This document shows positions 6,376-64,000 of a DNA stretch of 64,000 nt, in pieces. Numbering within the stretch: the first letter of the stretch is position 1; each line of letters opens with the position of its first letter. The translations under genes were made by a program, and so were the position numbers. Under the pieces are notes generated by a model. The model had not been told where the DNA came from, ran no database searches, and saw only the letters and a list, made by a program, of their open reading frames with translations. Origin of the DNA: a virus; IMG/VR virus record IMGVR_UViG_3300026488_000010; one strand, given 5' to 3'.

Positions 6376-6695
6376 TTTTTAACTCCTATCCCTCTTGTTA
6401 ATTTGTCAATGTTAAATCCTTTGCTGATTAAACATTGACCTACAATTTTTTTATCATATATTGAAATATCTTTTATATATAATGATAACTGATCATTATT
6501 TATTGTTCGCTTCCAACCTCGTATCGATCTAATTGACGGATCAATATCATATTTCTTCATCATCTTATCACATCTATTTGCAACAGCGTAATAAGATTCA
6601 ATTCTTCCATCAGCATATGAATCAGCATTTAATGTTATTGATGTCATTGATAATGTGAATATTATATTAGCGATTATAAAAAATAATTTCTTCAT
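6372..6695 (-). CDS. Small exported/periplasmic protein with two cysteines
   Basis: 107 aa; signal peptide ending LNA-D; 4-bp overlap with the porin gene. Confidence 0.6.
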   Translation of the reverse strand: MKKLFFIIANIIFTLSMTSITLNADSYADGRIESYYAVANRCDKMMKKYDIDPSIRSIRGWKRTINNDQLSLYIKDISIYDKKIVGQCLISKGFNIDKLTRGIGVKK

Positions 6696-6722
6696 TTGTG
6701 CCTCTCCTACTCCTAATTTTTC

Positions 6723-50041: not shown

Positions 50042-50759
50042 TGTTTATCTCCATTTGTAATACACTTTCTATGAATATTTTATATTTTTTATATAATTTA
50101 TGATCTGTGTTTTTTAACTTATAAAATGATCCTGAGTCTATCATACCATCATAATGAAATAATAATGAATCATTAAGAATGTGTTTTGGATAATATGCAC
50201 CCTTTGTTTGATCAACTAAATCAGTCATCTTTGATAATCTTCTAGAAACTTCTATATCCGAATCTTTTAAATGTTTGAATCTTAAATAGTCCATATCATA
50301 TAACCATCTATTATTTATAGTTACCATCTGGTACCAATTATAATATAGTGTATGGTTTGGTATATCAATATATTCTTTTTCTTTTTCTAGAATATGTTTA
50401 GGTACTTCTTCAATATAAATACAATCTTTATATAATGTATCTAATTTATCCAAAACTATAACATCTATATCAATATATAAAAATTCTTCTAAAATTCTGC
50501 TAAAATAATGCATAGTATAATTTCGTAAAAAATAATTTATTGAATTAGTTGTTACATTAAATTTTAAACTTTCTATAATATTAACATTATATTTTTGTAA
50601 TAATGCTTTTGTTTTTGAACTTATTTTTCTATTAGTGAATATCCCGCAATATATATTTGCAGATGGATTAGTATCTCTAATACTCTTTGCTAATAGTATT
50701 GCCATCTTTTCATAATTTGGTTCATAATCTGATGCCTCAACGCTAAATACTATATTCAT
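50013..50759 (-). CDS. Glycosyltransferase, GT-A fold (GT8-like)
   Basis: LAKSIR..NP, FLYIDIDVIVL (DxD), FHYDG. Confidence 0.7.
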   Translation of the reverse strand: MNIVFSVEASDYEPNYEKMAILLAKSIRDTNPSANIYCGIFTNRKISSKTKALLQKYNVNIIESLKFNVTTNSINYFLRNYTMHYFSRILEEFLYIDIDVIVLDKLDTLYKDCIYIEEVPKHILEKEKEYIDIPNHTLYYNWYQMVTINNRWLYDMDYLRFKHLKDSDIEVSRRLSKMTDLVDQTKGAYYPKHILNDSLLFHYDGMIDSGSFYKLKNTDHKLYKKYKIFIESVLQMEINNDDQYWKKY

Positions 50760-50768
50760 ACAATTCCT

Positions 50769-51641
50769 TTAAAAATTAAAAATGTCAAATAATCTGTCAT
50801 GTGCTTTATAATTAACATTAACTGTTGCCCCATTAATAAACATAACTGATTTTTGTAGCGCTGCTATCAATTCTTTATCTATTATTTCATCAAAGATTGG
50901 TACAAGTAATTCAAAATGATCATCATACAAATTTAATAGTTTTGTATCAATTTTTGGAATTTTTAATCTAAATAAAAGCCCTGTATGATCAATGATTTTT
51001 AATTTACCATCAATTAACAATACGTTACCTTTTATATTTGAAATCCACATATACATAATAGGTGATCCAATATCATATGATGCTAATTGTTTATATAATT
51101 TTTGTAATAAATTTTTGAATCGTGGTTTAGTTAGATCGTTAAATGTTACATCAGGACCTTGTAAATTTTCTGATATGAAATAACCGTTTTTATATTCTAA
51201 ATTATTTACAACAGGGCTTGAATTTGATAATTTTAATAGTTCTGATATATATAATTGATATTCAGTTTCCCATGAAACACCAATTTTTGATACTGCAAGT
51301 TTTTTCCACTCATAAAACGTATCAATAATAAATGATAAATCAATGTCTCGTTTTTTTTCTAATTTTTTTAATCTTTTGATGGGATTGTGTATCCAAGTAT
51401 CTAATATACTTTCTATGCACCCTTCAGAAATTGCGTTAATTCGTTGTTTATTATAATGATCAATAATATATTCTTCTGATTTATAAATATTGTTTTGATA
51501 CACAAAATAATTGCTTGTAGTGTTCTCCAATATTTCAATATTATGAACATCTTCGTCTTTTAGATCAAAAGCATCCATGAATCTCTTTAATTCTACTCGT
51601 AATTTAATATCTTCAATTTTTTTAGATTCTGTTAAAATCAT
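50769..51641 (-). CDS. Kinase-like protein (APH/choline-kinase-like C-terminal region)
   Basis: SPVVNNL..KNGYFISENLQG; SNIKGNVLL...KIIDH (catalytic loop and DFG-equivalent). Confidence 0.5.
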   Translation of the reverse strand: MILTESKKIEDIKLRVELKRFMDAFDLKDEDVHNIEILENTTSNYFVYQNNIYKSEEYIIDHYNKQRINAISEGCIESILDTWIHNPIKRLKKLEKKRDIDLSFIIDTFYEWKKLAVSKIGVSWETEYQLYISELLKLSNSSPVVNNLEYKNGYFISENLQGPDVTFNDLTKPRFKNLLQKLYKQLASYDIGSPIMYMWISNIKGNVLLIDGKLKIIDHTGLLFRLKIPKIDTKLLNLYDDHFELLVPIFDEIIDKELIAALQKSVMFINGATVNVNYKAHDRLFDIFNF

Positions 51642-51716
51642 TTAATTTCCTTTATGTTTAGTGCTTTTCTAGAATTGTCTACGTTACCTTTTTCTTTTTC
51701 GTACTTCTACCGATAT

Positions 51717-51770
51717 TTGTCCGTTCTATTCTATACAGAACGGACAATTTTTATCACATTTACTTGTAAT
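51717..51770 (-). pseudogene. Radical SAM gene remnant overlapped by an 11-bp-stem hairpin
   Basis: Minus strand 51770-51726 reads ITSKCDKNCPFCIE*, bounded by in-frame stops. Hairpin ttgtccgttct-N9-agaacggacaa at 51717-51747. Confidence 0.65.
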
Positions 51771-51857
51771 TCATCATTTATAGTTATATATTATTGGATC
51801 AAAATTTATTAGAACGTACACCATATTGTATTTTTTAAAAAATTTTTTGAATATATA

Positions 51858-52691
51858 TTAATCATTGTGAATCCAATTTTCCATTCCAAAATAACAGTAC
51901 TCATATATGCATTGAATAATTTTTGGTTCATATTTATAGTCAGATAAATATGAACCATCTATATCTCTAATCATTGATACAAAGCAGTCATATACTTTAT
52001 TATTTTGTATATGTAATGTATTGAATTGTGTCTTACATAAATAATTTTTTGAAGACATGTTATCTTTCCATATATCATAATTTGATAATTTGTCCGGCTG
52101 CTCATTATGTTGTTTTTTAAAATGATAGTCTTGTTTGATGTCGTCAAATATTTTTTGATGTTCTAATGTTCTCAAATGTTTTGTACTAGGAGCAGATGAT
52201 GTGCTAGAATTGATGATTGGGCAAAATTGAACATTTTTAAATATTTTTTTTAATTTAAAATATTCAGAATAGTCCGCATCTTCGTGACCCATATATGCTA
52301 TCTCATTCACAAGTTTTGATGACACATTTTTTACAAATTCTTTTAAAGTTGTTGATTGGGAATGATATGAATAATTGATTTTGCAATGATCATATACGGG
52401 ACTATTGAAAACTTCTGGATTTGATCCATTTGTTTGAATAATAATCTTAACTTTTGATTGCTTATATTGCTTTAAATGTTTTACAATTGAATCCAATCCT
52501 GGATATAATGTTGGTTCTCCACCATATATAAATACTTCATTATCTCGCTGATTGTGGTTATATAACTCATTTAATAAATTATCTAAACCAATCATATCAA
52601 AAGCTAATAACGCTTTTGAATTATCATGCATATCTGTACAGTAATTACAATTATAATTACAAGTTTCATTTAATCGTATTTCTATTCTCAT
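51858..52691 (-). CDS. Radical SAM protein
   Basis: CNYNCNYC, GGEPTLYP, TNGS, C-terminal Cys cluster. Confidence 0.9.
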   Translation of the reverse strand: MRIEIRLNETCNYNCNYCTDMHDNSKALLAFDMIGLDNLLNELYNHNQRDNEVFIYGGEPTLYPGLDSIVKHLKQYKQSKVKIIIQTNGSNPEVFNSPVYDHCKINYSYHSQSTTLKEFVKNVSSKLVNEIAYMGHEDADYSEYFKLKKIFKNVQFCPIINSSTSSAPSTKHLRTLEHQKIFDDIKQDYHFKKQHNEQPDKLSNYDIWKDNMSSKNYLCKTQFNTLHIQNNKVYDCFVSMIRDIDGSYLSDYKYEPKIIQCIYEYCYFGMENWIHND

Positions 52692-52705
52692 AATGTTACT
52701 AGTCC

Positions 52706-53635
52706 TTATTTTTCTTTTTTTATTTTTAATAATCCATCACATGAACAATAATCGAATGGGCATCTTTTAGGTTCAATGCTATCAATATTCTGAAAATATT
52801 TTTTAATTGGATGTTTTTCCGTATCAAAGCATAATTGACCAACTCTGCAATCCAAACCTATTTCATAATTATTATTCCAACATTTCCAGTCTTTAAACAT
52901 GTTGATTTTACTTTCAAATATTTCTGTATCTGTTTTATAAAATTCTTTTCTATCTTTATCGATAAAGATAAACTCTTTATAATCTCGTTCTTTTAAGTAC
53001 TCAAATTCTTTATAGAACTCTTTAGAATAACGAACATTCTTGTGCTGATCAATATAAATATAATGTGGATGAACTTCAATATTATCATATCTATCTAACA
53101 TCATTATCATCCGTTGAATACGTTTCCAGTACTCTTTTTTTGGATGCAACATAACATTGACTTTGATACGATAACCTTTATTTTGCATTATTAATATATT
53201 TTTGAGAAAAGTTTTATCAGATTCGTCATCAGCATATTCAACATGGTAACTAAACAGTGTATACATTTTAGAGTTAGATTTTTGACAATCTTCGAAAAAG
53301 TTTTGCTTCGAACCATTAGTTGTTATATATAATCTAGAATCTTTATGAGTTAAAACTTTTTCTTCTATCAATTTTATCAATTTATGATATCTATGATGTG
53401 ATGTTGGTTCTCCACCCAATAGTCCTAGAAATATTGGAAGTTTTGCTTTTGATAATTCTTCAATAACTTCTAACTGTTTTGTCCAATTCCCTGGACGCAT
53501 CCATGAATCTTTATACTGTTCAGTTGCATAACAATAAGAACATTTATATTCACATACTGTTGTTATATCCCAATGAATATATAATCGTTGAACTTTGTGT
53601 CCTTCTCCCAGTTGTTTTATAAACATATTTTCCAT
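52706..53635 (-). CDS. Radical SAM protein
   Basis: CEYKCSYC, LGGEPTSH, TTNGS, C-terminal CWNN...C...CPFDYCSC. Confidence 0.9.
   Translation of the reverse strand: MENMFIKQLGEGHKVQRLYIHWDITTVCEYKCSYCYATEQYKDSWMRPGNWTKQLEVIEELSKAKLPIFLGLLGGEPTSHHRYHKLIKLIEEKVLTHKDSRLYITTNGSKQNFFEDCQKSNSKMYTLFSYHVEYADDESDKTFLKNILIMQNKGYRIKVNVMLHPKKEYWKRIQRMIMMLDRYDNIEVHPHYIYIDQHKNVRYSKEFYKEFEYLKERDYKEFIFIDKDRKEFYKTDTEIFESKINMFKDWKCWNNNYEIGLDCRVGQLCFDTEKHPIKKYFQNIDSIEPKRCPFDYCSCDGLLKIKKEK
52950..52970. repeat. B' palindrome embedded in a CDS
   Basis: ctatctttatcgataaagata; 20/21 identical to the core of the 18214-18234 element. Confidence 0.6.
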
Positions 53636-54228
53636 CTTAAATCCTTGTTCAGACTCGCATCTGATATATTATCTTTACCATCTTTAGTCTGAACCCAACA
53701 ATATTTTTTAATTAATTTTGATGATTTCATATTTTGAATAATTTCAAGATACAAATTATAATCATTATCTAACGCGTTCCCTGTTGGAAATTTGGTCACT
53801 GTAGATCTCTTAAAAAATAATTGTGATAATTGAAAAGTACTATTTATTTTTGGTAACATAAACTCTTTTTTTCTCTCTTCAATAGCCTCTAAAGTATTCG
53901 ATAATTTAAAGTTTAAAAAATTAAGATCTTTTTCAAAATCAATATCGTCCCAAAAATCTAAACTAAAATCATCATCTTCCAAATACCAGACATATTTAGA
54001 TGATGATTTATCAAATAAATATTTATAAATAATAGATAAATCATCAGATTTTATATACGAATATTCTATATATAAATCTGTTAATATCTCTTCTATATCA
54101 TCACTATCATTATTAACATAAATTTTTACTTCTGCTCTTAGATGGTCAGGTATTGTATTAATTAAAGATGAAATACATCTCTTAAATAAATGTGGTCGAT
54201 TATGTGTTAGTATTAAAATATCAATCAT
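53617..54228 (-). CDS. Glycosyltransferase family 2-like
   Basis: ILILTHNRPHLFKRCISSL, VNNDSD, YVWYLEDDD. Confidence 0.8.
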   Translation of the reverse strand: MIDILILTHNRPHLFKRCISSLINTIPDHLRAEVKIYVNNDSDDIEEILTDLYIEYSYIKSDDLSIIYKYLFDKSSSKYVWYLEDDDFSLDFWDDIDFEKDLNFLNFKLSNTLEAIEERKKEFMLPKINSTFQLSQLFFKRSTVTKFPTGNALDNDYNLYLEIIQNMKSSKLIKKYCWVQTKDGKDNISDASLNKDLRWKICL

Positions 54229-55226
54229 GAATTAACCTTATAATGTAAAACATTTTTATATTTTATATCATCCTTTGGTACTAGCACAGCATCAACATTA
54301 TTAAATTCAACACCATCACAAATATATAAATCAGAACATTTAAAACATTCTGCTTTTTTTACATATGTTACTAATCTGTTATTTTTCGCGATATCAAAAA
54401 GTTCTTCCTTTGATGGAATACTCTTTGGGACACCATTAAATGTTGAAATATTCCAATCACTATCATCAAATATTTGCTGATATGTTCCATAACAATATTG
54501 TTCATAACCTCTCATAAAACATAAAGGTATATATCGAACATTAATTTTAATATCATATTTTTTTATTATATCAATAAAAGATTTTATTGCAATCGATGTT
54601 TCTAAATAATTGATATGCTCATTAGCATCTGACCATGAATTTACAGGTAATATATTTATCTGATCAGGCATTGTATCTATAATAAACTTTGAATAATTAA
54701 TCATATCATCTAAAAATAATTCATTCACTGTACAATTTATTCGAACTTCCATTTGTAATTGTTGTGCATTCTTAATGGCTTTTTTAATCTTGCAAAAAGC
54801 ATTCTTTGACTGTACAATCTCATCATGTTTATCTTCAAGATTGTGGACACTAAATAATATATCAGTCAATCCCATAAAATTCGATTTGATTATAAACTCT
54901 TCGTTGCTGAACATTGATCCATTCGTAACTGTAGATATTTTCATATGCTTTGGAATATAGTTTAATATATCAAACCAGTTAGTATGTATTGATGATTCTC
55001 CACCTGATAATTCAATCTCTGTAAATCCAGCAAGTACTATGGAATCTATATCATTTTTAATATCTTCAAAAGATTTTTTTAAATGTAATTGATCTATATA
55101 ATAACAAAAAGAACATTTATAATTACAGTTTGTACCTGTATTTAATTTTGCTCTTTTATTATGGATAAGTGCTGGTGATTCTTTAGCATCAGGTAAAAAC
55201 ATTTTATTATATAACATATTAATCAT
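54225..55226 (-). CDS. Radical SAM protein (HxsC-like architecture)
   Basis: CNYKCSFC, LSGGE, VTNG, YIPLC, C-terminal CFKCSDLYICDG. Confidence 0.9.
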   Translation of the reverse strand: MINMLYNKMFLPDAKESPALIHNKRAKLNTGTNCNYKCSFCYYIDQLHLKKSFEDIKNDIDSIVLAGFTEIELSGGESSIHTNWFDILNYIPKHMKISTVTNGSMFSNEEFIIKSNFMGLTDILFSVHNLEDKHDEIVQSKNAFCKIKKAIKNAQQLQMEVRINCTVNELFLDDMINYSKFIIDTMPDQINILPVNSWSDANEHINYLETSIAIKSFIDIIKKYDIKINVRYIPLCFMRGYEQYCYGTYQQIFDDSDWNISTFNGVPKSIPSKEELFDIAKNNRLVTYVKKAECFKCSDLYICDGVEFNNVDAVLVPKDDIKYKNVLHYKVNS

Positions 55227-56115
55227 TTAAAATATCCTTTATAATATTAATTATTTTATCATCATCTTGTAATTGTAAATCTGTATGTTCTAAATCTAAA
55301 ATACGATTTCGTAAACCTAAATCAATATCTAAATAATCTATAACTTCTTGAGTGTATTGAACATCAATTCCAAAATATTTACATTCAACAATAAATCTAG
55401 GAGAACAATCCCATTTCGCATCTATCGGTGTGTAAACATATTTATTAAATCTTTCAAATAAATTATCAACAGGTGCTCTAAGATTTTCGACATTTTTATA
55501 GTTTCCAAAATTTGATATAACTATTTTATCACCTGGAATACGATCAATAGACTCTTGACTAATATATCGACAATTTTCAGTAGCATATATTAATGTTTTA
55601 TTATCATGTCGTGTCGGCTTCTTCAATCTTTTAAGATCAATCATCTTAATATAATTTATATGTTTAGATGTTTGATATGCACTCTGGTCTAATAGAATAT
55701 GGTAGTTTGGTTTATCAATATCTATAACCTTTTTATCCCCACATGCAAACATAAAAACATTATCCATTAATAATGTACAATGTTTTTGAATATTGGTTAT
55801 CGCACCATCTGTAAAAAATATATTAGTGCCTCTCAATAATTTTGGCGAATCTAAAAAAATGGTGTTTGATAATAGTTCTTCTAATTCATTATCAGATATC
55901 AGGTACTTATCAAGTATTGCTTTTGTAAATGTTTTTTTATCTAAATCGCACATCAATATTGCAACAGAAATGTGCTTTTTCAAAAGGTTATAATAATCAA
56001 TAACTTCAAAAGTGTGCCCACATATACCGTGCTTAACGGTGCTCCAGGAATATGTTAAATATAAATTATATTCATTTAAAGTTTGTATGCTTGATTTCAT
56101 GCTTGATTTTTTCAT
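55219..56115 (-). CDS. Hypothetical protein, possibly GT-B-fold-like (paralog of 56702-57502)
   Basis: HGICGHTFEVIDYY N-terminal motif; WDCSPRFIVECKYFG C-terminal motif. Confidence 0.45.
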   Translation of the reverse strand: MKKSSMKSSIQTLNEYNLYLTYSWSTVKHGICGHTFEVIDYYNLLKKHISVAILMCDLDKKTFTKAILDKYLISDNELEELLSNTIFLDSPKLLRGTNIFFTDGAITNIQKHCTLLMDNVFMFACGDKKVIDIDKPNYHILLDQSAYQTSKHINYIKMIDLKRLKKPTRHDNKTLIYATENCRYISQESIDRIPGDKIVISNFGNYKNVENLRAPVDNLFERFNKYVYTPIDAKWDCSPRFIVECKYFGIDVQYTQEVIDYLDIDLGLRNRILDLEHTDLQLQDDDKIINIIKDILND

Positions 56116-56702
56116 ATTATCTCCGAATTAAATATGTCATTTGTGTCACCAATTAAATGTTTTATATCTTGTGGTCGTATATATCGTTTATATTCTTTTA
56201 AGATTTTAAATATATTTTTTTTACTTAAAAAACTTTTTGATCCAATATTTAATGCTGCGTCTAATCGCACATAAATGTTTTTAGATGCAGCAAAATTAAT
56301 AAAGGTTTCTAGATTTTTGATATTGTTATTATCTATTACTACAGTGTATTGTACTTTATGATCAGGATCGTCAACAATATCAACATCTATTAAATTTTCA
56401 GAACAGTGATAAATATATGAATCAATTAAATGATAATATATATTATATCTTTTAAGGAACATACCATTAGTTGTAACATTTATTATACTTTTTTTATCAA
56501 TCAATATATCAAATATTTTTCGCATTTGAGTATCATCTACTAAACCAGGTTCCCCACCTGTAATCGTAACTTTTGAATATTCTTTAATACTTTTTAATGA
56601 ATTGAGAACTTCATTATCATTGATTGATCGCTTATTGTGTGTGTCAACTATACAATACTGACACTTCCAGTTGCATTCAAATGTGATAGGAACACAATAC
56701 AT
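56112..56702 (-). CDS. Minimal radical SAM protein
   Basis: CNWKCQYC, ITGGEPG, TTNG; only 196 aa. Confidence 0.9.
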   Translation of the reverse strand: MYCVPITFECNWKCQYCIVDTHNKRSINDNEVLNSLKSIKEYSKVTITGGEPGLVDDTQMRKIFDILIDKKSIINVTTNGMFLKRYNIYYHLIDSYIYHCSENLIDVDIVDDPDHKVQYTVVIDNNNIKNLETFINFAASKNIYVRLDAALNIGSKSFLSKKNIFKILKEYKRYIRPQDIKHLIGDTNDIFNSEII

Positions 56703-57502
56703 TAGGTGCTCCTAGCAGTCATAGCAACTATCATTTTATCTGATTCATCTATTGTATAATCTTTTAGACCATTTCTTTTAATATCATTATATCTGATTAT
56801 AGTTGAGTCAATAATATCTGTTTCATTCTCTATTATTAATTTAGTATCATAATAAAATGCTTCTGGAATTATTCTATTATTTGTATCGAGCATCTGATGA
56901 ACATATAATATAGTGCAGCATTCTTCAAATATTGATATTGATTTATCAAGATGTTTTAATATAACATTTTTTAAATTATATTTTTTTGTGTACTCTTTAA
57001 TATTTAATTGTTCTGGTACTCGACTAGATATGAATGTTTTAGTTCCCGATGATTGAATATCTTTCATAATATCAAAATTTAACTTTAACTTACATTTAAT
57101 ATCAAAATCTTGATAATCATATTCACCATAAAATATTACTTGTTGTTTCTTCGGCATCATATAACTATGAGACTCATTACTATACACATGCATAGGGCAT
57201 TGTAAAAAACAATATACCTCGTGATATGTTCTGAGATCTAATATTAATGCTTTATTTATTCTGATATTATATAAAGATGTTGTCGTAGTACTTTTGAACT
57301 TTTTAAATAAGTGCTCAATGTTTTTATATTTATTAGAAAACGATCTTTTAAGATCGTTTAGATCTTGATCATTTATATTTACTAATAAAAATTCTAAGTC
57401 TGGATCGTTTTGTGATAAATATGCAAAATATTCAAAAGCATAATAGACTGAACCATTATACTTTTGATGAACATACCATTTGTATATTACTACATTTTTC
57501 AT
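56702..57502 (-). CDS. Hypothetical protein, possibly GT-B-fold-like
   Basis: YNGSVYYAFEYF and DTNNRIIPEAFYY mirror the motifs of 55219-56115. Confidence 0.45.
   Translation of the reverse strand: MKNVVIYKWYVHQKYNGSVYYAFEYFAYLSQNDPDLEFLLVNINDQDLNDLKRSFSNKYKNIEHLFKKFKSTTTTSLYNIRINKALILDLRTYHEVYCFLQCPMHVYSNESHSYMMPKKQQVIFYGEYDYQDFDIKCKLKLNFDIMKDIQSSGTKTFISSRVPEQLNIKEYTKKYNLKNVILKHLDKSISIFEECCTILYVHQMLDTNNRIIPEAFYYDTKLIIENETDIIDSTIIRYNDIKRNGLKDYTIDESDKMIVAMTARST
57338..57359. repeat. B palindrome embedded in a CDS
   Basis: aaacgatctt-tt-aagatcgttt; 21/22 match to the intergenic consensus. Confidence 0.6.
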
Positions 57503-57514
57503 TTTTTTATTTTT

Positions 57515-58120
57515 TTATTTTGAAGACGTTAACGTCTTAATGATTTCAGAATAAATCTCCAGGACCTGTTCTTGTGATGTTGCATCTTTCATATCTCTAT
57601 AAAAAGTCATGTATAACTCTTCTAAATAAGAGCTACGAGCAATAACATCACGAGCATTTAAATATTCTTCAAGTTTATCAATTAACAATTCATCTTCTGT
57701 TTCCAAGATTTGCAGATAAACTTCTTCTTTATTATCATCATGGATAAAATAACCTTTATCACATAAAGTATTATTAATATTAATATATTGATACATCATG
57801 AGACCAGAAGTGTTTGCTTGTTGGTGCGATACCATTTGGCGAGCTTTTTTCATATATATCATTTTCTGAGATGATAGATCATCAGTATCTGGTTCAATGA
57901 TAATTAAATCATGTTCCTGTACATCAATACCCTGATAATCCGAAACGATTCTTACAAGTTTATTAGCATTCATTGCGATTCTAATAGCGACATCTGCTGT
58001 TTGACTCAAACCTAAGAATCTATTATTTTTTTCAAAATCTTGTGTTAAAGAGCTACTAATATACTCAACTTCATAATATTTGCCGTGGTCAATTACCGCA
58101 GCTACACTGTATACCATCAT
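57515..58120 (-). CDS. Hypothetical protein, possible fibre assembly chaperone
   Basis: 201 aa; acidic helical C-terminus (MKDATSQEQVLEIY) resembling tail-fibre assembly proteins; directly downstream of the S74 protein. Confidence 0.4.
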   Translation of the reverse strand: MMVYSVAAVIDHGKYYEVEYISSSLTQDFEKNNRFLGLSQTADVAIRIAMNANKLVRIVSDYQGIDVQEHDLIIIEPDTDDLSSQKMIYMKKARQMVSHQQANTSGLMMYQYININNTLCDKGYFIHDDNKEEVYLQILETEDELLIDKLEEYLNARDVIARSSYLEELYMTFYRDMKDATSQEQVLEIYSEIIKTLTSSK

Positions 58121-58130
58121 TTTTTATTCC

Positions 58131-58976
58131 TTAAAAATCTAATAGATCTTTTAATAGATCATATCTTACACCGTAAAAACCAGTTACTGTTTCTACAACA
58201 TATTCTGCTAATCCTAATTCAATTAGCTCTTGAGCCATTACCCCAACTTGTTTACCAGAATCTAAAATTAATTCTGAATATTCATCTTTATATTCATACT
58301 CGTAGATTGGAACATATTTACCATCAAGTTTTCTAGTACATATATATGTAATATTTTTCTTTAATCTCATATCAGAGTAATGACACCCACAATCAGTATT
58401 ACACACACATTGAGAATTACATGAACAATCAGAATTACATAAACATTGTTTGGATATTTGTTCAAACTTTGTAATGATTTCATTGTGATAAGACATTTTA
58501 ATTTTTGTATTTCTATCAATACTTGATACATTCGATGTTACAGACATATATGTATTTAAAGTATTGATAACTTCAGCAACCGCTTGCCAATGTGATAACG
58601 ATATCTTTGAACCACTTGTTGCATTAAATGATGCTACTGTTGCATAAAAGTTGCCATTACCACCAGACATTGACCAATTCTCTTGTAAAGAATTTACTGC
58701 AAATTTTAAAGCATTAATATCTTTATGACTAATTTTGATATTAGTTCCAGATGCAAAAGATAATGAAGGCCAACCTGTGGTATTTGTACCATGATGTTGA
58801 GTACATGTAATATTAACTTCATATGTATCCTCAACATAGTTTGTACCATGTCCTTTAGTTACAGTCCAAGCTGATGCGGGACTTACTCTCCCAGCATCAA
58901 CCCTTCCTGTAACCGCACTAGGTGTTTTTGTATGTGTCGGTGTACTTGTACTTGTAATACCATCATTAAATCCCAT
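58131..58976 (-). CDS. Fibre-like protein with Cys-rich tract and C-terminal peptidase S74 intramolecular chaperone
   Basis: CLCNSDCSCNSQCVCNTDCGC (58445-58383), then YSDMRLKKNI...YEYEYK...GVMAQEL...YGVRY (S74). Confidence 0.85.
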   Translation of the reverse strand: MGFNDGITSTSTPTHTKTPSAVTGRVDAGRVSPASAWTVTKGHGTNYVEDTYEVNITCTQHHGTNTTGWPSLSFASGTNIKISHKDINALKFAVNSLQENWSMSGGNGNFYATVASFNATSGSKISLSHWQAVAEVINTLNTYMSVTSNVSSIDRNTKIKMSYHNEIITKFEQISKQCLCNSDCSCNSQCVCNTDCGCHYSDMRLKKNITYICTRKLDGKYVPIYEYEYKDEYSELILDSGKQVGVMAQELIELGLAEYVVETVTGFYGVRYDLLKDLLDF

Positions 58977-58986
58977 TATAATTCCT

Positions 58987-60117
58987 TTATTTTCGTAGTT
59001 TTAAATATCTTTGAACAGTTCTATCAATTAAACCAAAAAGTTTATACACTTCACATAAATCATCTTTAGGATCATGATAAGCTTCTTCATAACTTTTATC
59101 AGATACTTCAACATTTATAATTGGGCATTGATAACATACAGTAGCTGAACAGCCTTTACAATGTTCGGGTAATATCAATAATTCTTTATGTTTTTTGTGA
59201 GAAGTCATTACAGACTCAGCAATATTATCAACACTACCAATTATGAATTCTTCTTTTTTATCTACATATAGTGCACCATGACATACTAACATATTACCAT
59301 CTAAATCAATATTTGCAATATTGATTCCAGCTGTACACATTGCTCGATCACCTGTACCAAACCATGTGAATAAAAATTTACCATTTTCTTCAAAGTATTT
59401 AATTTCTCTTTTTGCCAATTCTGTAAAATCTTTTTCTAATTTATCTAATAACTTTTGTTCTATTAAATATTTGTTAGTGTATTCTATAGTAGGTGACCAT
59501 GAGATCCAAGGTAATTCTTTAGATAATTCATAATAATGTTCCCAATGTTTAACAATATTTGGTAACTCTTCAACAGGTAAAGTTCCTTTAATTGAGAAAT
59601 TAATTTCTGGAAAATTCGAACTTAAATATTTAATTGAGGACAATACTCGTTGTTGAGTGCCTTTACCTGAATGGTCCACTCGATACTTATCATGACCAAT
59701 ACCATCATAAGATACTTGAAATGAAAATCTCGAATCATCTATACCATATTCTCGAAATTTATAAATTATTGATGATATAGTTAAAGCATTTAATCCATTA
59801 GTGTAAAAAAAGAAATCAATAGGGTCATTTTTATATGCTTCCAATACTTCAAATATTAATTTTGTATTTAGAGTAGGTTCCCCACCCCAGAAGTCCAATG
59901 TTATTCCATTATATTCTTTTTGGAACTCTGCATCAATGAGCAAATCATTAATTATTTTAATAATATCTAGATCTTGTTTTTTTGTGTTTTGAAGTTCTTC
60001 TCCTTCAAAACAATAAGTACATGCCATATCACATTTCTGAGTAGTTGTGACTTCGAGTGCAAAATATTTTTTTGTAGGCAATGGTCCTGCTTTATTTATC
60101 ATAGGATCATTTATCAT
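58987..60117 (-). CDS. Radical SAM/SPASM maturase
   Basis: CDMACTYC, FWGGEPTLN, VSYDG, SPASM CTAG...CHG...CKGC...CYQCP...C. Confidence 0.9.
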   Translation of the reverse strand: MINDPMINKAGPLPTKKYFALEVTTTQKCDMACTYCFEGEELQNTKKQDLDIIKIINDLLIDAEFQKEYNGITLDFWGGEPTLNTKLIFEVLEAYKNDPIDFFFYTNGLNALTISSIIYKFREYGIDDSRFSFQVSYDGIGHDKYRVDHSGKGTQQRVLSSIKYLSSNFPEINFSIKGTLPVEELPNIVKHWEHYYELSKELPWISWSPTIEYTNKYLIEQKLLDKLEKDFTELAKREIKYFEENGKFLFTWFGTGDRAMCTAGINIANIDLDGNMLVCHGALYVDKKEEFIIGSVDNIAESVMTSHKKHKELLILPEHCKGCSATVCYQCPIINVEVSDKSYEEAYHDPKDDLCEVYKLFGLIDRTVQRYLKLRK

Positions 60118-60377
60118 TATTGTTCACCAAAAATATTAGCTAAAATTGTATCATATGTTTTATCATCTAATTTTGTTTTATCAATTGCTGCATTGTTTGC
60201 AGACACAGTTAATGTTTTAAATGCCTCTGTTGTAAAATTTAAAATATTTTTTGATGTTTGTTCAAACCCGGCAGCCTTAAATAATAAACCGGCCTCTAAT
60301 ACATGTTGTATCGCACCCTGAATCAACTGCTCATGAGTTACTTCTACTTCTTCTACTTCTTCTATCTCATCATTCAT
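60117..60377 (-). CDS. Small acidic hypothetical protein
   Basis: 86 aa, translationally coupled; N-terminal EEV repeats. Confidence 0.55.
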   Translation of the reverse strand: MNDEIEEVEEVEVTHEQLIQGAIQHVLEAGLLFKAAGFEQTSKNILNFTTEAFKTLTVSANNAAIDKTKLDDKTYDTILANIFGEQ

Positions 60378-60913
60378 TATATTTTTCCTCTTAATGTTTC
60401 TTGTATTAAATCTAAAGTGTATTTATCTTGTTTAATTATTATATGTTGTATATCATTAATTTCTAAGAATTGTTTAATCTTATTATCTAATTCTTTCGCT
60501 TCAACAATATCTTGACTTCTACCACCTTCAAAGAATCCATATAATGCTGAACGTTCTAAAAAAATATTTAAATTGTTATATCTATTATATTGTTCAATCA
60601 TAAAATCATTGAATTCAACATGTGCAATATGATTAGCATCACAATAATTTAGTCCCATGACAAATGGTGAATCATGAACTGCTACTTCAACGCAACGATC
60701 CAATCTCTTCATACGACGATGTTGCTCACCTGCAACATGTAACTGATCATTTAATAATTCATATGATTCATCATATATTAACTCTTTAGCATATTCTTGG
60801 GTCATATCAGCATCTATACCTTTCTTTTTTAATAAAGATGTTAACTCCATTGCAAGTGTGGATTTACCAACACCTGGACCGGCAAAGAAATTTATATGTA
60901 ACGCATTTTTCAT
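60377..60913 (-). CDS. P-loop kinase/ATPase (NadR/AAA_28-like)
   Basis: Walker A AGPGVGKST, QEYAKEL, VHDSP. Confidence 0.8.
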   Translation of the reverse strand: MKNALHINFFAGPGVGKSTLAMELTSLLKKKGIDADMTQEYAKELIYDESYELLNDQLHVAGEQHRRMKRLDRCVEVAVHDSPFVMGLNYCDANHIAHVEFNDFMIEQYNRYNNLNIFLERSALYGFFEGGRSQDIVEAKELDNKIKQFLEINDIQHIIIKQDKYTLDLIQETLRGKI

Positions 60914-60937
60914 TATTTATCCTTCTACTATCTTTTA

Positions 60938-61945
60938 CTATCTTTTACTATCTTCTACAAATAGTTTAATTAAATGTGTGCCTGTTTCTTTTAATAGTAA
61001 TTTTAACTCAGCATCAATACCTTTATATATTGTACATAATTCCGAAATTACTCCACCATTTTTTACTTGTTCAAAAATACATCCTTTATGACATGTGTTT
61101 TTAATTTTACACGAATTGCATTGATCTAAATAATCATTTCCAAAATTCTTTTTAAATTTTAAATAAACACTATCATCTCTTAAAAATCTTTCACATGGTA
61201 TTATATCTTTACTCTTTGGAGAAATCGCAAAATATTTAATACCTGCTTGACAATTAGTTTTTTGATACCCAGTATAAGAATATTCAATTATTGGACTAAG
61301 ATATGTTTTAATTAATCCAGGTAATTGATTATAAGTTGTGCATTGCTTGATCATTGGTATCATATAATTAATATAATTTCGAAAATCAATTATAAAATAT
61401 TCTGATTGTAAAGCATTCCATGTACCCATGTCACGGACAAGTGTTACATCAATAGTTAATAATTCTGAATCAAACATCTTTTGAAAACTTTTTTCTAAGT
61501 TTATAAGATAATTACTATGCAATTTAAAATCACCACCAACAACCATACAATGTATTCTAGCATTATGTGATAGATATTCTTTAGCAAAAACTTTTTTTGT
61601 ACCTCTATGAACTTCTTGATTTTCACCATCATGCGATATTGTTATATTTACTTTAGGATTATTTATTATATCAATAACCCTAGAATTATAAATTGTACCA
61701 TTTGATGTTATATTTATTTTTTTACAATTATCAATTTGTAATTTCTTGATGATATATTCAACATCATCCAAATTTAAAAATGGTTCCCCACCAAATATAT
61801 CAAATACAAATTCTTCATGTTTAATTGATAATAATAATTCATCAAAATCTGATAACGATATTTTATTTTTATTATTCACATCAATATCACAATATGTACA
61901 ATTCATATTACACTGCTCAGATAAAACATAATGATACGTCTTCAT
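60938..61945 (-). CDS. Radical SAM/SPASM protein
   Basis: CNMNCTYC, FGGEPFLN, ISHDG, SPASM CQAG...PCERF...CNSCKIKNTCHKGC...C. Confidence 0.9.
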   Translation of the reverse strand: MKTYHYVLSEQCNMNCTYCDIDVNNKNKISLSDFDELLLSIKHEEFVFDIFGGEPFLNLDDVEYIIKKLQIDNCKKINITSNGTIYNSRVIDIINNPKVNITISHDGENQEVHRGTKKVFAKEYLSHNARIHCMVVGGDFKLHSNYLINLEKSFQKMFDSELLTIDVTLVRDMGTWNALQSEYFIIDFRNYINYMIPMIKQCTTYNQLPGLIKTYLSPIIEYSYTGYQKTNCQAGIKYFAISPKSKDIIPCERFLRDDSVYLKFKKNFGNDYLDQCNSCKIKNTCHKGCIFEQVKNGGVISELCTIYKGIDAELKLLLKETGTHLIKLFVEDSKR

Positions 61946-61964: not shown

Positions 61965-62118
61965 ATTTCTATATTAACTCAAAACGATCTTTAAAGATCG
62001 TTGTATTTCTATGCTAACTTTTCTATCTTTAAAGATCATTTTGTAAACTGTCGATATACTAACGATATACAACACTATCTGAACTATAGATTTTAAAACG
62101 ATCTTTAAAGATCGTTTT
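61965..62118. repeat. Cluster of A and B palindromic repeats
   Basis: A at 61965-61980 and 62005-62020; B at 61983-62002, 62023-62037 and 62094-62119 (perfect 26-bp taaaacgatcttt|aaagatcgtttta). Confidence 0.9.
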
Positions 62119-62141
62119 ATTTGAAATCAAGGACAAGAATA

Positions 62142-62160
62142 TAAGACGCTTAGCGTCTTA
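62142..62160 (-). terminator. Hairpin at the end of the tail-fibre gene
   Basis: taagacgc-tta-gcgtctta, overlapping the stop codon. Confidence 0.55.
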
Positions 62161-64000
62161 TACTTTTACTTCTACTTCGTTACAGAATTCATCTTCTATT
62201 GAATTAGATAATGCAACTCCAACCAAATCCATTCTTTTATCAAGACTTAATTGTTTTAATTGTTTTTTATTTATACCAATAACATAACCTAGATCATCAT
62301 CATCTGGAAATATATAATCACCTTTTGATATAAATTGTTTTGTTTTAACAGGTACTCTTCCAGATAAAGCTATAAAAATATACCCATGATCTTTGAATCC
62401 ATCCCCAAACGATGTTTTATCATTAAGTTCTAAACCTGGGTTTGTACTAACAATACCAGCTAAAGGTAAATCTGGATCATACAACGTAACTTCTTTATCT
62501 CCACCAAGAGATAATAATGTTCCAGGTGCATAATCTAAATCACTTAAATAATTTTCAGCAACATCGCCATAATATGCAGATGTTGCTACACCGTTAAATT
62601 TATCAGCGGTCATTTCATAACCACCAGCATCAACATCACAATTGATATCTAATCGTGTACCATTAATTGTTTGAGACCCTGTACTAGAACCAAGAGTATT
62701 AGCCCCTTTAAGATTAGCGCCACCCTTTGATGTTAGATAACCTGTTAAATTTGTCTCATCAGTAACTGTTAACACACCTGTTACATCTAAATTACCATCA
62801 ACTGTTAAAACATCTGTAACTGTTAAGTTACCGTTTGCTGTATGATTTTGTGTCCCAGTAGTCGCAGCATCACCATATGTTATCTCACCATGCAATTCAA
62901 TGTTTCCATATACCGTTAAATTTTGTGCATCATCAGTTGCACCAATAACAACAGGCCCACCTAATAAATCAGCACCATCATCTTTAACTATGAGTTTTTT
63001 ATCAAATGTACCAGAACCCTTTACAACTAGATTCCCATCATCGGTTGTAATATCACCTTTTTTGGTATATATTGCACCCTCTGTTGTAATATTTAATCCA
63101 CCATTTTTTGTTTGGAATCCAGAATCAACAAAACAATGACCGCTTGATGAATCAATGTCTCCTGTAACTTTTAAATAACCATTTTGTGTTTCAAAATTAC
63201 CAATAGTTGCGAAATATCCAGTTGCGTCTGTATGATAACCTGCAGTACATGATATAGACCCATTTGCTGTTTCAATGTTACCAACAGTTGTTTTAATTAT
63301 ACCGTCGCCTGTTGTGATACTACCAGTATCAGCGCTAAAACCTACAGATGTTGTATGAACTCCTGTACTTGCATTAACGTGTCCGCTATCAATTTCAAGT
63401 GAACCACTAGTGCTATGAATATCCAAAGTACATTCTAATCCACCACTTGCTGTATCAAAGTCACCTGATGTTGCTTTATATCCACCACTGTCAGTGATAT
63501 ACCCAATCTTGACCGTGCTTTTACCTGCGGTGCTCACAAAGTTACCATTAATAGTTAAAGAATTTTCTGTATTAGAACTAGACGTTATTTTAGCAACACC
63601 GTTCTTAACTTCAAAATCTGTCTGTACTGTTAAATCACCTGTACAATAAACCTTCTGATAAAGATTAGAATCACCTAAAACAATAGAAGTCTTTGGAGCA
63701 TCCAAAGATAACATTGTACCATTTAAATAATTATATGATGCGTTATCATCTACAATATAAACCCATGGTCTTTCAGCTAATGTGTTTGCACCTGAATAAC
63801 CAGTTTTAAATCCTGACACACTATCAATTACAGGTGTATAAATAGGACCAGTAAAATATGATAAATATTGTAATCTTTCATTATCTATTTGATCTCTAAT
63901 AAACTGATCATTTCTTTTATAATCTTTTGTTAATGTTCCAATAACATGATAGTTATTAGCGAGCTCTGAAAATGCAAATGATTTTAGATTATCAACATCA
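62158..64000 (-). CDS. Tail fibre/spike with C-terminal peptidase G2-type autocleaving chaperone (5'-partial)
   Basis: Gly/Thr-rich beta repeats; AYYGDVAENY...GIVSTNPG...IALSGRVPVK...VEVKV. The frame stays open from the track's GTG (63819) to the window edge, so the real start lies outside the window. Confidence 0.8.
   Translation of the reverse strand, partial: DVDNLKSFAFSELANNYHVIGTLTKDYKRNDQFIRDQIDNERLQYLSYFTGPIYTPVIDSVSGFKTGYSGANTLAERPWVYIVDDNASYNYLNGTMLSLDAPKTSIVLGDSNLYQKVYCTGDLTVQTDFEVKNGVAKITSSSNTENSLTINGNFVSTAGKSTVKIGYITDSGGYKATSGDFDTASGGLECTLDIHSTSGSLEIDSGHVNASTGVHTTSVGFSADTGSITTGDGIIKTTVGNIETANGSISCTAGYHTDATGYFATIGNFETQNGYLKVTGDIDSSSGHCFVDSGFQTKNGGLNITTEGAIYTKKGDITTDDGNLVVKGSGTFDKKLIVKDDGADLLGGPVVIGATDDAQNLTVYGNIELHGEITYGDAATTGTQNHTANGNLTVTDVLTVDGNLDVTGVLTVTDETNLTGYLTSKGGANLKGANTLGSSTGSQTINGTRLDINCDVDAGGYEMTADKFNGVATSAYYGDVAENYLSDLDYAPGTLLSLGGDKEVTLYDPDLPLAGIVSTNPGLELNDKTSFGDGFKDHGYIFIALSGRVPVKTKQFISKGDYIFPDDDDLGYVIGINKKQLKQLSLDKRMDLVGVALSNSIEDEFCNEVEVKV

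Follow-up and report, generated by a model that had tools for sequence, protein, structure and literature searches.

The window analysed here, a stretch of 64,000 nucleotides of viral DNA (IMG/VR record IMGVR_UViG_3300026488_000010), carries a conserved gene cassette around a 281-aa protein with a cysteine tract and a C-terminal S74 domain (Table 1). The gene order of the cassette is fixed: rSAM335, rSAM376, the tract protein, p201, p266, p298 and rSAM333. The cassette is much larger than a preliminary description of this DNA had seen, comprising also p298, p201, p266, at least seven radical SAM (rSAM) genes and, in relatives, sugar-nucleotide genes. The C-terminal domain of the upstream tail-fibre-like gene is also conserved 5' of the cassette elsewhere among the phage loci, with similar C-termini at loci L109 and L111. 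Since a terminator-like hairpin closes this gene, the cassette appears to form a new transcription unit.

Table 1. Features of the cassette and its surroundings
Feature	Position	Strand	Description	Basis
Tail-fibre-like gene	62158..63999	-	directly upstream of cassette; extends past window edge	phrog_19602 tail fiber E 8.7e-9
Hairpin	62138..62164	-	terminator-like, at end of upstream fibre gene	
Palindrome	61983..62002	.	20 bp, AACGATCTTTAAAGATCGTT; possible regulatory site in 212-nt gap before rSAM335	
rSAM335	60938..61945	-	radical SAM/SPASM, first cassette gene	Pfam Radical_SAM E 1.4e-10
AAA_28 protein	60377..60913	-	P-loop protein, 178 aa	Pfam AAA_28 E 2.5e-9
p86	60117..60377	-	small acidic protein encoded between rSAM335 and rSAM376	no family match
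rSAM376	58987..60117	-	radical SAM/SPASM, proposed maturase, directly 5' of tract protein	Pfam E 2.7e-11
Tract protein	58131..58976	-	281 aa, Cys tract with S74 domain, proposed substrate	ORF translation, Pfam, homologue alignment
Cys tract	58383..58445	-	CLCNSDCSCNSQCVCNTDCGC, residues 178-198, 8 Cys, three C-x-x-D/Q motifs	
S74 domain	58131..58376	-	intramolecular chaperone, residues 201-281; predicted self-cleavage before Ser201 (58374-58376), partner Lys206	Pfam PF13884
p201	57515..58120	-	conserved partner directly 3' of tract protein	in essentially all loci
p266	56702..57502	-	conserved cassette protein	no family match
rSAM196	56112..56702	-	small radical SAM protein	Pfam E 2.1e-8
p298	55219..56115	-	GT-B-fold glycosyltransferase-like	phrog_24441 E 3.7e-33
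rSAM333	54225..55226	-	HxsC/viperin/MoaA-like radical SAM, non-SPASM	Pfam E 8.1e-14; NCBIfam HxsC E 9.4e-18
GT2	53617..54228	-	glycosyltransferase, 203 aa	Pfam Glycos_transf_2 E 6.8e-7
Further rSAM battery	48058..53635	-	rSAM genes with unnamed genes between	Pfam Radical_SAM
rSAM gene	52706-53635	-		Pfam Radical_SAM E 2.8e-10
rSAM gene	51858-52691	-		Pfam Radical_SAM E 2.2e-11
rSAM gene	48058-49077	-		Pfam Radical_SAM E 4e-12

Several of the accompanying genes vary in their distribution. A gene of 75-113 aa occupies the p86 position in many loci; the AAA_28 protein has homologues only in the window's own sub-clade (L011-L013, L021, L039) and hence is not a core component. rSAM196 is represented by 1-4 paralogues in relatives. 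The ESM Atlas structure of p298 resembles GT1/GT4 families (TM 0.60-0.66). None of the 40 homologues of p266 bears a functional name (six are called only "hypothetical protein") or a Pfam domain. The AF2 model of p201 (pLDDT 85.7) combines an alpha/beta N-domain with a helical bundle, and neither family searches nor structure comparison of the model returned a family or a specific fold. p201 is a conserved partner, but its earlier reading as a possible assembly chaperone finds no support, alone among the initial observations.

The Cys tract, the three helical repeats before it and the S-D-M-R-L-K sequence after it all lie where they were first described. The tract, with its motifs CNSD, CNSQ and CNTD, is encoded by 3.2-3.4 tandem copies of an 18-nt unit (58445-58383), and AF2 assigns no confident structure to it (pLDDT ~33). 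Motifs of the type (G/N)xKIxxx(H/Y/D) at residues 79-86, 121-128 and 156-163 each open a predicted helix (84-105, 127-144 and 161-176), giving three strand-helix repeats. Known S74 domains trimerise a fibre or spike and then remove themselves. The Pfam Peptidase_S74 match covers residues 201-259 (E 1.6e-8) and, at 35.1 bits, exceeds the cut-off of 22; S-D-M-R-L-K directly follows H199-Y200, which places Ser201 and Lys206 five residues apart.

Of 57 unique homologues, 42 keep SDxRLK, and a further 11 lack S74 altogether and end 0-2 residues from ...C.C[NH]Y. The S74-less chromosomal tract protein of Halobacteriovorax, for instance, ends CGCHY. This natural end, ...CGC(H/N)Y, coincides with the predicted cleavage point, and therefore the Cys tract is the predicted mature C-terminus, as had been proposed. 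Some family members carry a 12-aa stub in place of S74, others no domain at all, and the pattern of presence and absence requires at least four changes (loss or gain) on well-supported tree branches. The domain seen initially is real; within the family it is an optional accessory, not the defining follower that it had been taken for.

The tract protein belongs to a family of 430 clusters at 50% identity, whose members measure 150-830 aa, share a conserved and structured N-part and end in the tract. The family logo reads C[IL]CNSDCxCNxVCxC[HN]x[DN]CGC[NH]Y. The 55 unique four-repeat tracts share all eight Cys as well as D183, N187 and Y200 without exception, which puts the observation far beyond chance, and have either D or N at position 195; more distant members replace the fourth Cys. 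After each CxC (tract positions 4, 10, 16 and 22) Asn and His alternate, and the "acceptor" position of the second repeat is mostly Val, so that a metal site or folded knot fits these positions as well as cross-link acceptors do. Alternatively, the tract might be a metal-binding or disulfide knot that staples a trimer and undergoes no enzymatic cross-linking, with the rSAMs acting elsewhere (on sugars, nucleotides or a cofactor) or using the Cys protein as their metal/Fe-S scaffold. Asn/His interchange is expected of ligand or hydrogen-bond roles, and the CxC repeats, with their many Ser, Asn, Asp and Gly residues, recall the CxC clusters of metallothioneins. In phage fibre tips, iron is bound by the HxH motifs of T4 gp37 and of spikes. 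The presence of at least seven rSAMs, glycosyltransferases and sugar-nucleotide genes points the same way, as does the resemblance of rSAM333 to nucleotide-acting enzymes; with so many other rSAM and sugar genes nearby, rSAM376 could have another substrate. We nevertheless regard such a knot as rather unlikely to account for the cassette, in view of the enzymes next to it.

Both upstream rSAM/SPASM genes are as first described. In rSAM335 and rSAM376 alike, CX3CX2C is joined by seven more conserved Cys at SPASM distances: CX3CX2C at 12-19 and Cys 232, 251, 276, 279, 285, 289 and 304 in rSAM335 (kept in 14 orthologues), and Cys 29, 33 and 36 with 261, 279, 320, 323, 328, 331 and 355 in rSAM376 (invariant in 18 orthologues). 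The best NCBIfam match of both is PapB (rSAM376, full length, E 5.8e-27; rSAM335, E 6.5e-18), followed for rSAM376 by QhpD (E 1.3e-18) and the CXXX-repeat maturase; the SCIFF maturase is also among the best family matches of the two enzymes. In a PDB profile search the best solved relative of rSAM376 is CteB (5WGG, E 3.2e-19), ahead of anSME. The nearest characterised relatives, PapB, QhpD and CteB, all form Cys thioethers, in line with the proposal that the enzymes are Cys-thioether maturases. All family scores lie far under the NCBIfam equivalog cut-offs (PapB, 94.8 versus 340 bits), so that the reaction type is an analogy only. The radical SAM motifs begin at residue 12 (rSAM335) and residue 29 (rSAM376), and both enzymes lack the N-terminal RRE-bearing extension of ~100 residues present in CteB and many RiPP maturases. 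A RiPP-leader function of the helical repeats finds no support.

The tract protein could also be the substrate of a different chemistry: formylglycine formation (anSME-like), epimerisation, C-C or other links, or glycosylation of Cys, Asn or Ser by the GT-B/GT2 enzymes with rSAM-tailored sugars. The enzyme anSME aligns full length (NCBIfam E 5.5e-14; PDB 4K37 E 2.5e-11), acts on folded or large proteins and, like the SPASM enzymes here, has no RRE-bearing N-terminal extension. Glycosylation would suit the GT-B fold of p298, the GT2 gene and the sugar-nucleotide genes that accompany the cassette in Halobacteriovorax and phage CP220. Yet the thioether formers PapB, QhpD and CteB rank well ahead of the other matches, ranthionine precedents agree with the invariant Asp and with the spacing of C-x-x-D/Q, and sequence inspection of the tract reveals no sulfatase-type C/S-x-P-x-R motif. 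Altogether, we judge a chemistry other than thioether formation unlikely.

The association of tract proteins with SPASM genes was followed across 14 viral, 59 metagenomic, 3 genomic and 10 assembly loci. Wherever the DNA upstream of a tract protein could be read (~80 loci), an rSAM376 homologue lies directly 5', long forms of the tract protein (438-832 aa, those of 672-832 aa among them) included, and the pairing persists where the rest of the cassette varies. In a reverse search from four distant rSAM376 homologues (31-33% identity), a tract protein is next in two with DNA, one of which continues with a p201-like gene; in the remaining two this position is taken by an S74 protein or by a small gene. 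The neighbourhood noticed in the window thus proved to be an obligate pair. A metal or disulfide knot gives no reason for a SPASM enzyme from the clade of peptide maturases to stand directly 5' in every locus and to be retained when the remaining cassette varies. Moreover, Cys-repeat ORFs 5' of rSAM/SPASM genes recur in other phages, unrelated ones included: a CxxxC-repeat ORF in Erwinia phage Asesino, an ORF for a SCIFF-like 47-aa peptide in a gut phage and a Cys-heptad ORF in CP220. Metal binding and cross-linking of the tract are not mutually exclusive.

Besides a giant phage from a hydrothermal vent, the cassette occurs in many phages related to it and in a few predatory bacteria (Halobacteriovorax). 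Chromosomal copies occur in 4 of 81 Halobacteriovoraceae genomes; the Halobacteriovorax cassette adjoins aro genes and is accompanied by sugar genes (DegT, epimerase, UDP-glucose dehydrogenase and deacetylases). Given these chromosomal copies, the product need not be part of a virion, and the original identification of the 281-aa protein as a virion fibre is not supported.

Among isolate phages, homologues of rSAM376, p298 and p201 are confined to the Campylobacter phages CP220, CPt10 and IBB_35, which are known to harbour radical SAM genes (Timms et al. 2010, PMC2853527). The rSAM376 homologue is 30% identical and retains all ten Cys. These phages possess 11-12 rSAM genes, dispersed with the other genes in three blocks rather than one cassette, together with sugar-nucleotide genes in CP220. 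Their Cys protein, 2.2 kb from the SPASM gene, comprises 534 aa with (CDCNYCT)x6 and no S74, and its homology to the window protein is borderline (hhalign probability 49%). This Cys-heptad protein (IBB_35 gene 3-9) appears in a published virion MS list, which, together with the fibre gene before the cassette, suggests a possible virion location. A role of the tract protein as virion fibre tip is plausible.

We infer, with a probability of roughly one half, a conserved protein-maturation cassette, in which S74 exposes the tract, SPASM rSAMs cross-link it and the product is a virion fibre-type protein. The 281-aa protein would be made with its C-terminal S74 domain, which would trimerise it and, through the Ser201/Lys206 dyad, cut itself off before Ser201, leaving the free C-terminus ...C-L-C-N-S-D-C-x-C-N-x-x-C-x-C-N-x-D-C-G-C-H-Y. 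rSAM376, probably together with rSAM335, would modify the tract. The CNSD, CNSQ and CNTD motifs and the CrpA precedent of C-X-X-Q/D ranthionine (see below) suggest a thioether substrate; the likeliest products are non-reducible ranthionine-type thioethers from Cys sulfur to Asp/Asn/Gln side-chain carbons (C-x-x-D/Q/N motifs). p298, p201, p266, the other rSAMs and the sugar genes probably serve extra modification or substrate handling. In phages the product is probably particle-associated and fibre-type, with a chemically hardened tip. Comparative genomics gives good support to a predicted RiPP-like modification of a protein, with thioether cross-linking as its likeliest form. What the sequences show directly is the anatomy of the parts, their conservation and their linkage; the relation of enzyme to substrate, the cleavage, the thioether chemistry and the location in virions are deduced from these.

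The kinship of the SPASM enzymes with RiPP maturases, and the SCIFF-like 47-aa peptide beside such an enzyme in the gut phage, could instead suggest that the tract is excised and exported as a toxin or signalling peptide, as the preliminary description had considered. This is highly improbable: the tract closes proteins of 150-830 aa whose N-part is structured and conserved, and it would stay on the protein body after S74 cleavage. Family searches and locus comparison revealed no conserved exporter in the cassette and, besides S74 with its predicted cut C-terminal to the tract, no conserved protease. With the enzymes locked next to a Cys-tipped protein, RiPP-type maturases probably modify a full-size, probably virion, protein, an activity of SPASM rSAMs for which we found no account in papers on viruses.

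Among known systems, the nearest precedent is found in Methanococcus voltae with CrpC/CrpA (TIGR04463 family), where CrpC installs ranthionine thioethers, identified by MS, in C-X-X-Q/D motifs at the C-terminal end of CrpA (Dieter et al. 2026, PMC13692751). This work, whose authors also suspect metal binding by CrpA, supersedes the earlier statement that no example was characterised. As in the cassette, the SPASM rSAM gene adjoins that of a Cys-repeat protein, not a short peptide. However, rSAM376 scores 39 bits against TIGR04463 (cut-off 525), CrpC has an RRE, for which the window enzymes lack the N-terminal extension, and CrpA consists of ten 17-residue repeats, in contrast to four 6-residue CxC units. 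The CrpA system also lacks S74, a second SPASM enzyme, glycosyltransferase, p201 and p266 partners and a link to viruses.

PapB/PapA (freyrasin) and CteB/CteA (SCIFF) provide the best family and the best solved-structure match for both window enzymes. PapB makes Cys-to-Asp and CteB-type enzymes Cys-to-side-chain thioethers in repeated Cys motifs. Their substrates are leader-core peptides of 40-50 aa recognised via an RRE, whereas the substrate proposed here is a 160-830 aa protein, the enzymes have no RRE extension and the equivalog cut-offs are far above their scores. QhpD, the second-best family match, is a SPASM rSAM that forms Cys-Asp/Glu thioethers in a protein subunit (QhpC, of quinohemoprotein amine dehydrogenase) remaining in a larger assembly. 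Here, dehydrogenase subunits and a QhpE-type protease are absent, and the match begins at model position 95, the N-terminal extension of QhpD being missing. Finally, the S74 domain scores above the PF13884 gathering threshold and shares with endosialidase tailspikes and the T5 L-shaped fibre a Ser/Lys pair five apart at the domain start. In those proteins S74 follows a beta-helix or coiled-coil stalk, whereas in the window family it follows a Cys tract and is dispensable.

Genes for a tail sheath and a major head protein lie in the window, whose contig measures 286,633 bp; the source therefore is a divergent jumbo myovirus. The DNA is AT-rich (about 28% G+C), every listed ORF of at least 113 aa with an ATG or GTG start lies on the minus strand, and the sole full match among sequencing runs is a hydrothermal-vent metagenome, probably the source sample; the runs listed include no RNA dataset containing the window. 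For the genes studied here, the nearest isolate relatives are Campylobacter phages of the CP220 group.

The candidate substrate, termed the tract protein, harbours a Cys tract whose DNA repeats an 18-nt unit in tandem 3.2-3.4 times. The tract is followed by H-Y and then by S-D-M-R-L-K, which places Ser201 and Lys206 at the dyad spacing of the self-cleaving intramolecular chaperone domain Peptidase_S74 (S74). Three (G/N)xKIxxx(H/Y/D) motifs are located at residues 79-86, 121-128 and 156-163, each at the start of a predicted helix. Translation of the ORF thus recovers the protein, tract coordinates, repeats and S-D-M-R-L-K of the preliminary description. The protein yielded no megablast or tblastn match among 50,697 phage records and no match among PDB sequences, and its N-terminal part matched no fibre family or fold. 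AlphaFold2 modelled the protein poorly (pLDDT 58.8, and about 33 in the tract), and Foldseek gave no match for the model at E<=0.001, the sole recognisable hit being the S74-related MyRF ICA domain (7dc3) at rank 33 (E 1.3).

Coordinates of the features discussed (window positions unless a locus or accession is given)
Feature	Location	Strand	Remark
Tract protein	58131-58976	-	281 aa
Cys tract	58445-58383	-	residues 178-198, CLCNSDCSCNSQCVCNTDCGC
rSAM376	58987-60117	-	radical SAM/SPASM enzyme
rSAM335	60938-61945	-	radical SAM/SPASM enzyme
p86	60117-60377	-	
p201	57515-58120	-	
p266	56702-57502	-	
p298	55219-56115	-	
rSAM333	54225-55226	-	
Palindrome	61983-62002		perfect, 20 bp, AACGATCTTTAAAGATCGTT
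Terminator-like hairpin	62138-62164		12-bp stem
Fibre-like genes with the recurring C-terminal domain	62158-63999; L109:1426-2643; L111:3365-4696		upstream of cassette
CP220 blocks L102, L103	NC_027997.1 6138-18314 and 113619-130281		hold p201 (gp015) and p298 (gp184) homologues
Asesino Cys-repeat ORFs	L099:3112-3492 and L099:3507-3902		5' of two radical SAM genes (gp181, gp180)
Gut phage 47-aa ORF	L100:5486-5626		radical SAM/SPASM match at 6001-6846; record without annotation
Pilin-like S74 protein, Halobacteriovorax sp. CON-3 (G001:C1)	L098:10487-12067	-	526 aa

The tract is retained in four homologues from metagenomes (78-30% identity), each of which has a homologue of rSAM376 directly 5'. 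Pattern searches based on alignments extended this set to 14 viral, 59 metagenomic and 3 genomic loci. Wherever the upstream DNA is readable, the gene order is rSAM335, rSAM376, tract protein, p201, p266, p298 and rSAM333, followed by one to four small radical SAM genes and several of about 300 aa. When 1.84 billion representatives were searched with a profile restricted to the mature part, 430 clusters at 50% identity came up, including proteins of 438-832 aa that bear the tract unit at the C-terminus; in the three loci of this long form examined, a SPASM gene is directly 5'. In the reverse direction, four rSAM376 homologues of 31-33% identity were inspected. Two are followed by a tract protein, and in one of these cases a p201-like gene comes next, while an S74 protein or a small gene occupies the corresponding place in the other two. 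Tract proteins that follow distant rSAM376 homologues occur with or without S74. The preliminary description would have fallen if homologues commonly occurred without radical SAM neighbours; among loci with readable upstream DNA no tract protein without the enzyme was found, the latter being directly 5' throughout. As far as gene neighbourhoods can tell, the enzyme class is tied to the full-size protein family as tightly as comparative genomics allows.

The 55 unique four-repeat tracts yield the logo C[IL]CNSDCxCNxVCxC[HN]x[DN]CGC[NH]Y, without any variation at the eight Cys residues, D6, N10 and Y23; tract proteins further removed can have another residue in place of the fourth Cys. A Cys donor close to a conserved acceptor (C-Xn-D/E/N/Q/T), as in RiPP substrates, is found here: acceptor position 6 is an invariant D, position 18 is D or N, and V prevails at position 12. 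A second Cys/His motif, MACSGSHCxxHxxGTxTCxxHRxxCxTN (alignments A2 and A5 of the family), is present at the N-terminus of most family members and may represent a second target or a metal site. The sub-clade of the window has largely lost this motif and features a 40-aa extension instead; residues 58-65 keep only C58, H61, H62 and N65, and the sub-clade retains both SPASM enzymes despite the reduction.

Both enzymes belong to the radical SAM superfamily (PF04055 above the Pfam cut-off) and possess a CX3CX2C motif near the N-terminus, C29/C33/C36 in rSAM376 and C12/C16/C19 in rSAM335, that is conserved in orthologues. SPASM domains were recognized by seven Cys for two auxiliary 4Fe-4S clusters, in the arrangement C..G-x4-C ... 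CX2CX5CX3C ... C. In rSAM335 these are C232, C251, C276-x2-C279-x5-C285-x3-C289 and C304, in rSAM376 C261, G274-x4-C279, C320-x2-C323-x4-C328-x2-C331 and C355; the spacing in rSAM376 departs slightly from the pattern and was counted as an instance of it. All these residues are invariant across orthologues, and the two SPASM-type genes proposed 5' of the tract protein are thereby borne out, while the Pfam SPASM model reported neither enzyme at E<=0.01.

Profile matches place the enzymes among peptide maturases in a general manner, every NCBIfam score being well under the equivalog cut-offs. The best match of both is the ranthipeptide maturase PapB (E 5.8e-27 for rSAM376, 6.5e-18 for rSAM335), which appears to be a superfamily-level relative only, as the scores of 94.8 and 65.0 bits lie below the NF047865 cut-off of 340 bits. 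Next in line are QhpD and the CXXX-repeat, GG-motif (“samocin”) and SCIFF peptide maturases for rSAM376, and the streptosactin maturase GggB, QhpD and HxsB for rSAM335. TIGR04463, the CrpC-type maturase of Cys-rich proteins, gave 39.4 bits (E 3e-10) with rSAM376 against a cut-off of 525 bits. Among solved structures, a profile of 16 rSAM376 orthologues matched CteB (5WGG) first (E 3.2e-19), followed by 8VPO and anSME. Since the alignments to CteB, QhpD and the SCIFF maturase begin about 95-103 residues into the known enzymes, the phage enzymes, whose radical SAM motifs begin at residues 29 (rSAM376) and 12 (rSAM335), lack the N-terminal extension bearing the RiPP recognition element (RRE). The small neighbours p86 and p201 did not match PqqD/RRE models either. 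A short leader-bearing precursor together with an RRE in or beside the maturase, as customary for RiPPs, was thus not found; the tract proteins range from 150 to 830 aa. A role in defence was considered and dropped, as the PADLOC models gave just partial pVip matches on the generic, viperin-like radical SAM core of four enzymes.

The Peptidase_S74 match covers residues 201-259 (E 1.6e-8; 35.1 bits versus a Pfam gathering score of 22). The catalytic Ser of S74 domains is located at the domain start and the Lys five residues later, a spacing shown by S201 and K206. SDxRLK continues the tract in 42 of 57 unique tract proteins, mostly into a full S74 domain; 11 of the 57 end 0-2 residues past ...C.C[NH]Y, and several keep just a conserved stub of 12-14 aa, SDxRLKKEIxYC. 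Four proteins of 166-196 aa (loci L071, L073, L075 and L076) have only the 12-aa remnant, followed by a stop. This remnant seems to be under selection, because it is kept between different sequences though the rest of the domain is gone. The Halobacteriovorax protein stops at ...CGCHY, which is the predicted cut point of the window protein, and natural homologues that end there without S74 provide strong, albeit indirect, evidence that the tract forms the mature C-terminus. When the presence of S74 is mapped on a tree of 46 orthologues of rSAM376, the well-supported branches alone require that its state changed at least four times. The proposed S74 follower is therefore a genuine domain, yet an optional one, and an accessory rather than part of the core system.

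The reading we favour, at a probability of about one half, is a RiPP-like maturation at the protein level: rSAM376 and rSAM335 would cross-link the Cys tract, which would be exposed either by S74 cleavage or by a natural stop. Release of a peptide is very improbable; S74 cleavage at the predicted site would leave the tract on the protein. Alternatively, the tract might form a metal or disulfide knot with the radical SAM enzymes acting elsewhere. Such a knot would leave the SPASM gene next to the tract protein unexplained, and we consider it unlikely.

The remaining cassette bears on a further alternative, namely other chemistry or glycosylation on the same tract protein. The p298 product adopts a GT-B glycosyltransferase-like fold, a GT2 gene follows, and the 14 kb from 48058 to 61945 contain seven radical SAM genes or more. 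Relatives contain up to about ten radical SAM genes in a row, including one to four paralogues of a form of about 200 aa and several of about 300 aa. The top matches of the two enzymes 5' of the tract protein (PapB, QhpD and CteB) are thioether formers, and we regard other chemistry or glycosylation as rather improbable. None of the 40 homologues of p266 has a functional name or a Pfam domain, and p266 shows no similarity to p298. The structure of p201 is predicted confidently (pLDDT 85.7), but the searches gave no match in the ESM Atlas or Foldseek, and VIA-align returned generic helical bundles only (Z 9.5 or less); evidence identifying it as the suggested assembly chaperone was not obtained.

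The fibre gene upstream is closed by a terminator-like hairpin overlapping its stop codon, and the gap preceding rSAM335 contains a palindrome; the cassette therefore looks like a transcription unit of its own. The C-terminal domain of this fibre-like gene product (...IGVAL.NS...V.V) recurs 5' of the cassette in distant phage loci and matches no Pfam family, only phrog_19602/6427.

The cassette is not confined to phages. In the chromosome of Halobacteriovorax sp. CON-3 it directly follows chorismate synthase and an AroB-AroA fusion, and it is also found in another Halobacteriovorax and a Bdellovibrionales MAG. Of 81 sampled genomes of the Halobacteriovorax family, only 4 have it. On the 3' side are genes for DegT, PIG-L, a polysaccharide deacetylase, an epimerase, UDP-glucose dehydrogenase and a pilin-like S74 protein, and thus the radical SAM battery and sugar genes appear to travel together in bacteria, too. 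A prophage was rejected in view of the 5' aromatic biosynthesis genes and 18 kb of 3' DNA with sugar and other genes and no phage family. The pilin-like protein of this island, which has no Cys tract, shows a methylation motif of type IV pilin-like character (Pfam N_methyl) at the N-terminus, contains repeats rich in Asn and Thr and ends in a Peptidase_S74 domain (E 6.9e-16); it represents a pilin-anchored, putatively self-cleaving fibre of a predatory bacterium.

Other phages offer parallels. CP220 gp136 is 30% identical to rSAM376 with all ten Cys kept, and gp140 (534 aa), which contains (CDCNYCT)x6 and further CxC(N/D) motifs, is encoded three genes upstream of gp136 in CP220 and five in phage F379. 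As BLASTP between the tract protein and CP220 gp140 is not significant (E 0.057) and hhalign gives a probability of only 49%, the two are best called analogous and possibly homologous. The p298- and p201-like genes of CP220 are elsewhere in the genome, each in a small block adjoining radical SAM or UDP-glucose dehydrogenase genes; radical SAM genes are present in both blocks and a UDP-glucose dehydrogenase gene in the gp015 block, and gp015 directly follows tail-assembly and baseplate-hub genes. In phage IBB_35 the gp140 homologue (gene 3-9, 60,318 Da) was among the virion proteins found by mass spectrometry at 2.6% coverage (PMC3322345 supplement); the absence of the p201-like gene (2-36 by count) from that list was given no weight. 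Erwinia phage vB_EamM_Asesino (KX397364.2) has two CxxxC-repeat ORFs with 20-21 Cys each just 5' of radical SAM genes, and in gut phage scaffold MT835472.1 a radical SAM/SPASM gene is directly preceded by an ORF of 47 aa that bears the SCIFF-like motif GGCGECQTSCQSACKTSC; judged by gene arrangement, both appear to follow the same logic with different repeats. The first Asesino ORF is unannotated and overlaps the annotated gene gp186 on the opposite strand.

The fibre gene nearby, the existence of long forms, the S74 domain and the virion proteome of IBB_35 make a virion location of the phage tract protein plausible; given the bacterial chromosomal copies, it is not obligatory. Tentatively, and with doubt prevailing, a dedicated pathway common to phages and predatory Halobacteriovorax might staple the tip of a surface or virion protein by thioethers, possibly with glycosylation and metal binding, so that it engages the envelope of a Gram-negative prey or host; a removable S74 domain would help in assembly where present, and the chemistry would come from as many as about ten radical SAM enzymes. 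If so, this would be the first case of a viral structural protein cross-linked by enzymes, and RiPP chemistry would have a new role beyond natural products.

The tract family spans large phages from vents, fresh water and the sea as well as predatory bacteria. Cross-linking of the tract, if it takes place, would mean that phages harden or functionalize one of their own proteins by chemical means. This would be a new kind of virion maturation, and the 11-12 radical SAM genes of Campylobacter phages, unexplained since 2010 (PMC2853527), would acquire a function. The system lends itself to direct tests: phages of the CP220 group and strains of Halobacteriovorax can be cultivated, and the forms naturally devoid of S74 are ready-made mature substrates. 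A literature search for a phage or Halobacteriovorax version of such a system returned no paper. The known substrates of radical SAM thioether chemistry are small antimicrobial peptides and very few proteins, namely QhpC and, in 2026, CrpA. CrpA, a Cys-repeat protein of 28.8 kDa, receives ranthionine links from the SPASM enzyme CrpC (Dieter et al. 2026, PMC13692751). The repeats of CrpA bear C-X-X-Q/D motifs (PMC13692751), and the window tract likewise contains three C-x-x-D/Q motifs (CNSD, CNSQ and CNTD).
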